A stretch of 64,000 nt of DNA from Acutalibacteraceae bacterium (GTDB lineage: Bacteria > Bacillota > Clostridia > Oscillospirales > Acutalibacteraceae): NCBI GenBank assembly GCA_045636945.1, contig JAZTYO010000023.1:14485-78484 (forward strand), written 5' to 3'. The stretch is not shown here. A report on this DNA, generated by a model with database tools, continues below.

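Follow-up and report, generated by a model that had tools for sequence, protein, structure and literature searches.

The AGPS-like FAD oxidase evolves several-fold more slowly than its neighbours in the operon. Across the related loci from other genomes and contigs (L005-L085 and L094-L161), its median pairwise identity was 87%, with a minimum of 80%, whereas the medians of its six partners in the core lay at 51-64% in the same comparison. The oxidase was still 85% identical in pairs of loci in which the remaining core proteins had fallen to 38-54%. Outside this tight clade, its next relatives were found at 61-64% identity, then at 54, 48, and 42%.

Within the clostridial clade, to which the window protein belongs, all the cysteines of both CCG domains are gone from the Fe-S subunit; they are kept in distant homologues from loci L090 and L091. 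They are likewise gone from the Fe-S protein of the L087 type, the locus of which has no ETF, and therefore the loss of the CCG cysteines is not strictly coupled to the presence of an ETF. The KduI/IolB slot, compared between the window and L001, L010, L018, L031 and other loci, is filled by two distinct proteins across genomes, i.e., type A, which shares at least 70% identity with its counterpart in the window, and type B, which shares 34-42%. The exchange looks like a displacement inside one family.

The hairpin following the IolB-like gene has counterparts in the closest relatives only, in which the stems are conserved and the loop differs. It is positioned precisely at the junction of the IolB-like gene with the optional aldose epimerase gene, and may act as a processing, stabilizing or attenuating element within the operon.

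Coordinates of the features discussed, in the window or in related loci (L)
Feature	Sequence	Coordinates	Strand
BPD_transp_1 permease-domain protein	window	13794-15194	+
tRNA gene	window	16244-16316	-
SH3/papain-like protein	window	23136-24131	-
AGPS-like FAD oxidase	window	29776-31206	+
Fe-S subunit	window	31232-32323	+
KduI/IolB-family protein (type A)	window	34090-34881	+
Intra-operon hairpin	window	34895-34920	
Hairpin counterpart	L014	13183-13206	
Hairpin counterpart	L015	15119-15142	
Hairpin counterpart	L016	15047-15070	
Fe-S homologue, CCG cysteines kept	L090	2487-3635	
Fe-S homologue, CCG cysteines kept	L091	3890-5023	
Lactate-utilization set and divergent cluster copy	L164	885-7537 and 7775-14917	

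Elsewhere in the window, the tRNA gene was the sole Rfam match over the 64 kb, and it lies among plus-strand genes, immediately upstream of an ABC exporter gene. A 331-aa protein in which a papain-like (C39-like/C10/C70) cysteine peptidase domain accompanies two bacterial SH3 domains has no relation to the operon; it may be a protease that is secreted or located in the cell wall. In another protein, of 466 aa, the BPD_transp_1 permease domain is confined to the last 190 residues, and the first 275 matched no Pfam family at the threshold applied; this protein may be a binding-protein/permease fusion.

In several related loci, an AEC-family (PF03547) membrane protein of about 307 aa is encoded inside the operon, usually directly 5' of the FGGY kinase gene, or adjoins it (L021, L040, L062, L069, L070, L098, L106-L108, L111, L113, and L156); this assignment was made by Pfam for four embedded members and two beside the operon, and by size and position for the others. 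EamA/DMT carriers adjoin the operon in L027, L037, L040, L054, and L115/116.

Variant and partial clusters were also observed. Among the oxidase-anchored loci with ample flanks, L065 comprises only the RpiR regulator, oxidase and Fe-S genes, and L079 has neither aldolase nor PfkB inside 10 kb; these exceptions to the pattern may be assembly chimeras or real partial clusters. In L164, a classical lactate-utilization set (aldose epimerase, FAD oxidoreductase, GlcD-like LctD, EtfB, EtfA, and LarA racemase) is located immediately upstream of a divergent cluster copy, in which the ETF is unfused and the oxidase shares 62% identity with that of the window. Finally, the metagenome-assembled genome JAZQLG01 (Faecousia sp.) carries the seven-gene core twice, on contigs L012 and L032, one copy being accompanied by an SftI-like isomerase and the other by NagA and an N-acylglucosamine 2-epimerase, the genes of which are inserted between those of the FGGY kinase and the ETF. 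These two copies suggest that different entry substrates feed a common core chemistry.
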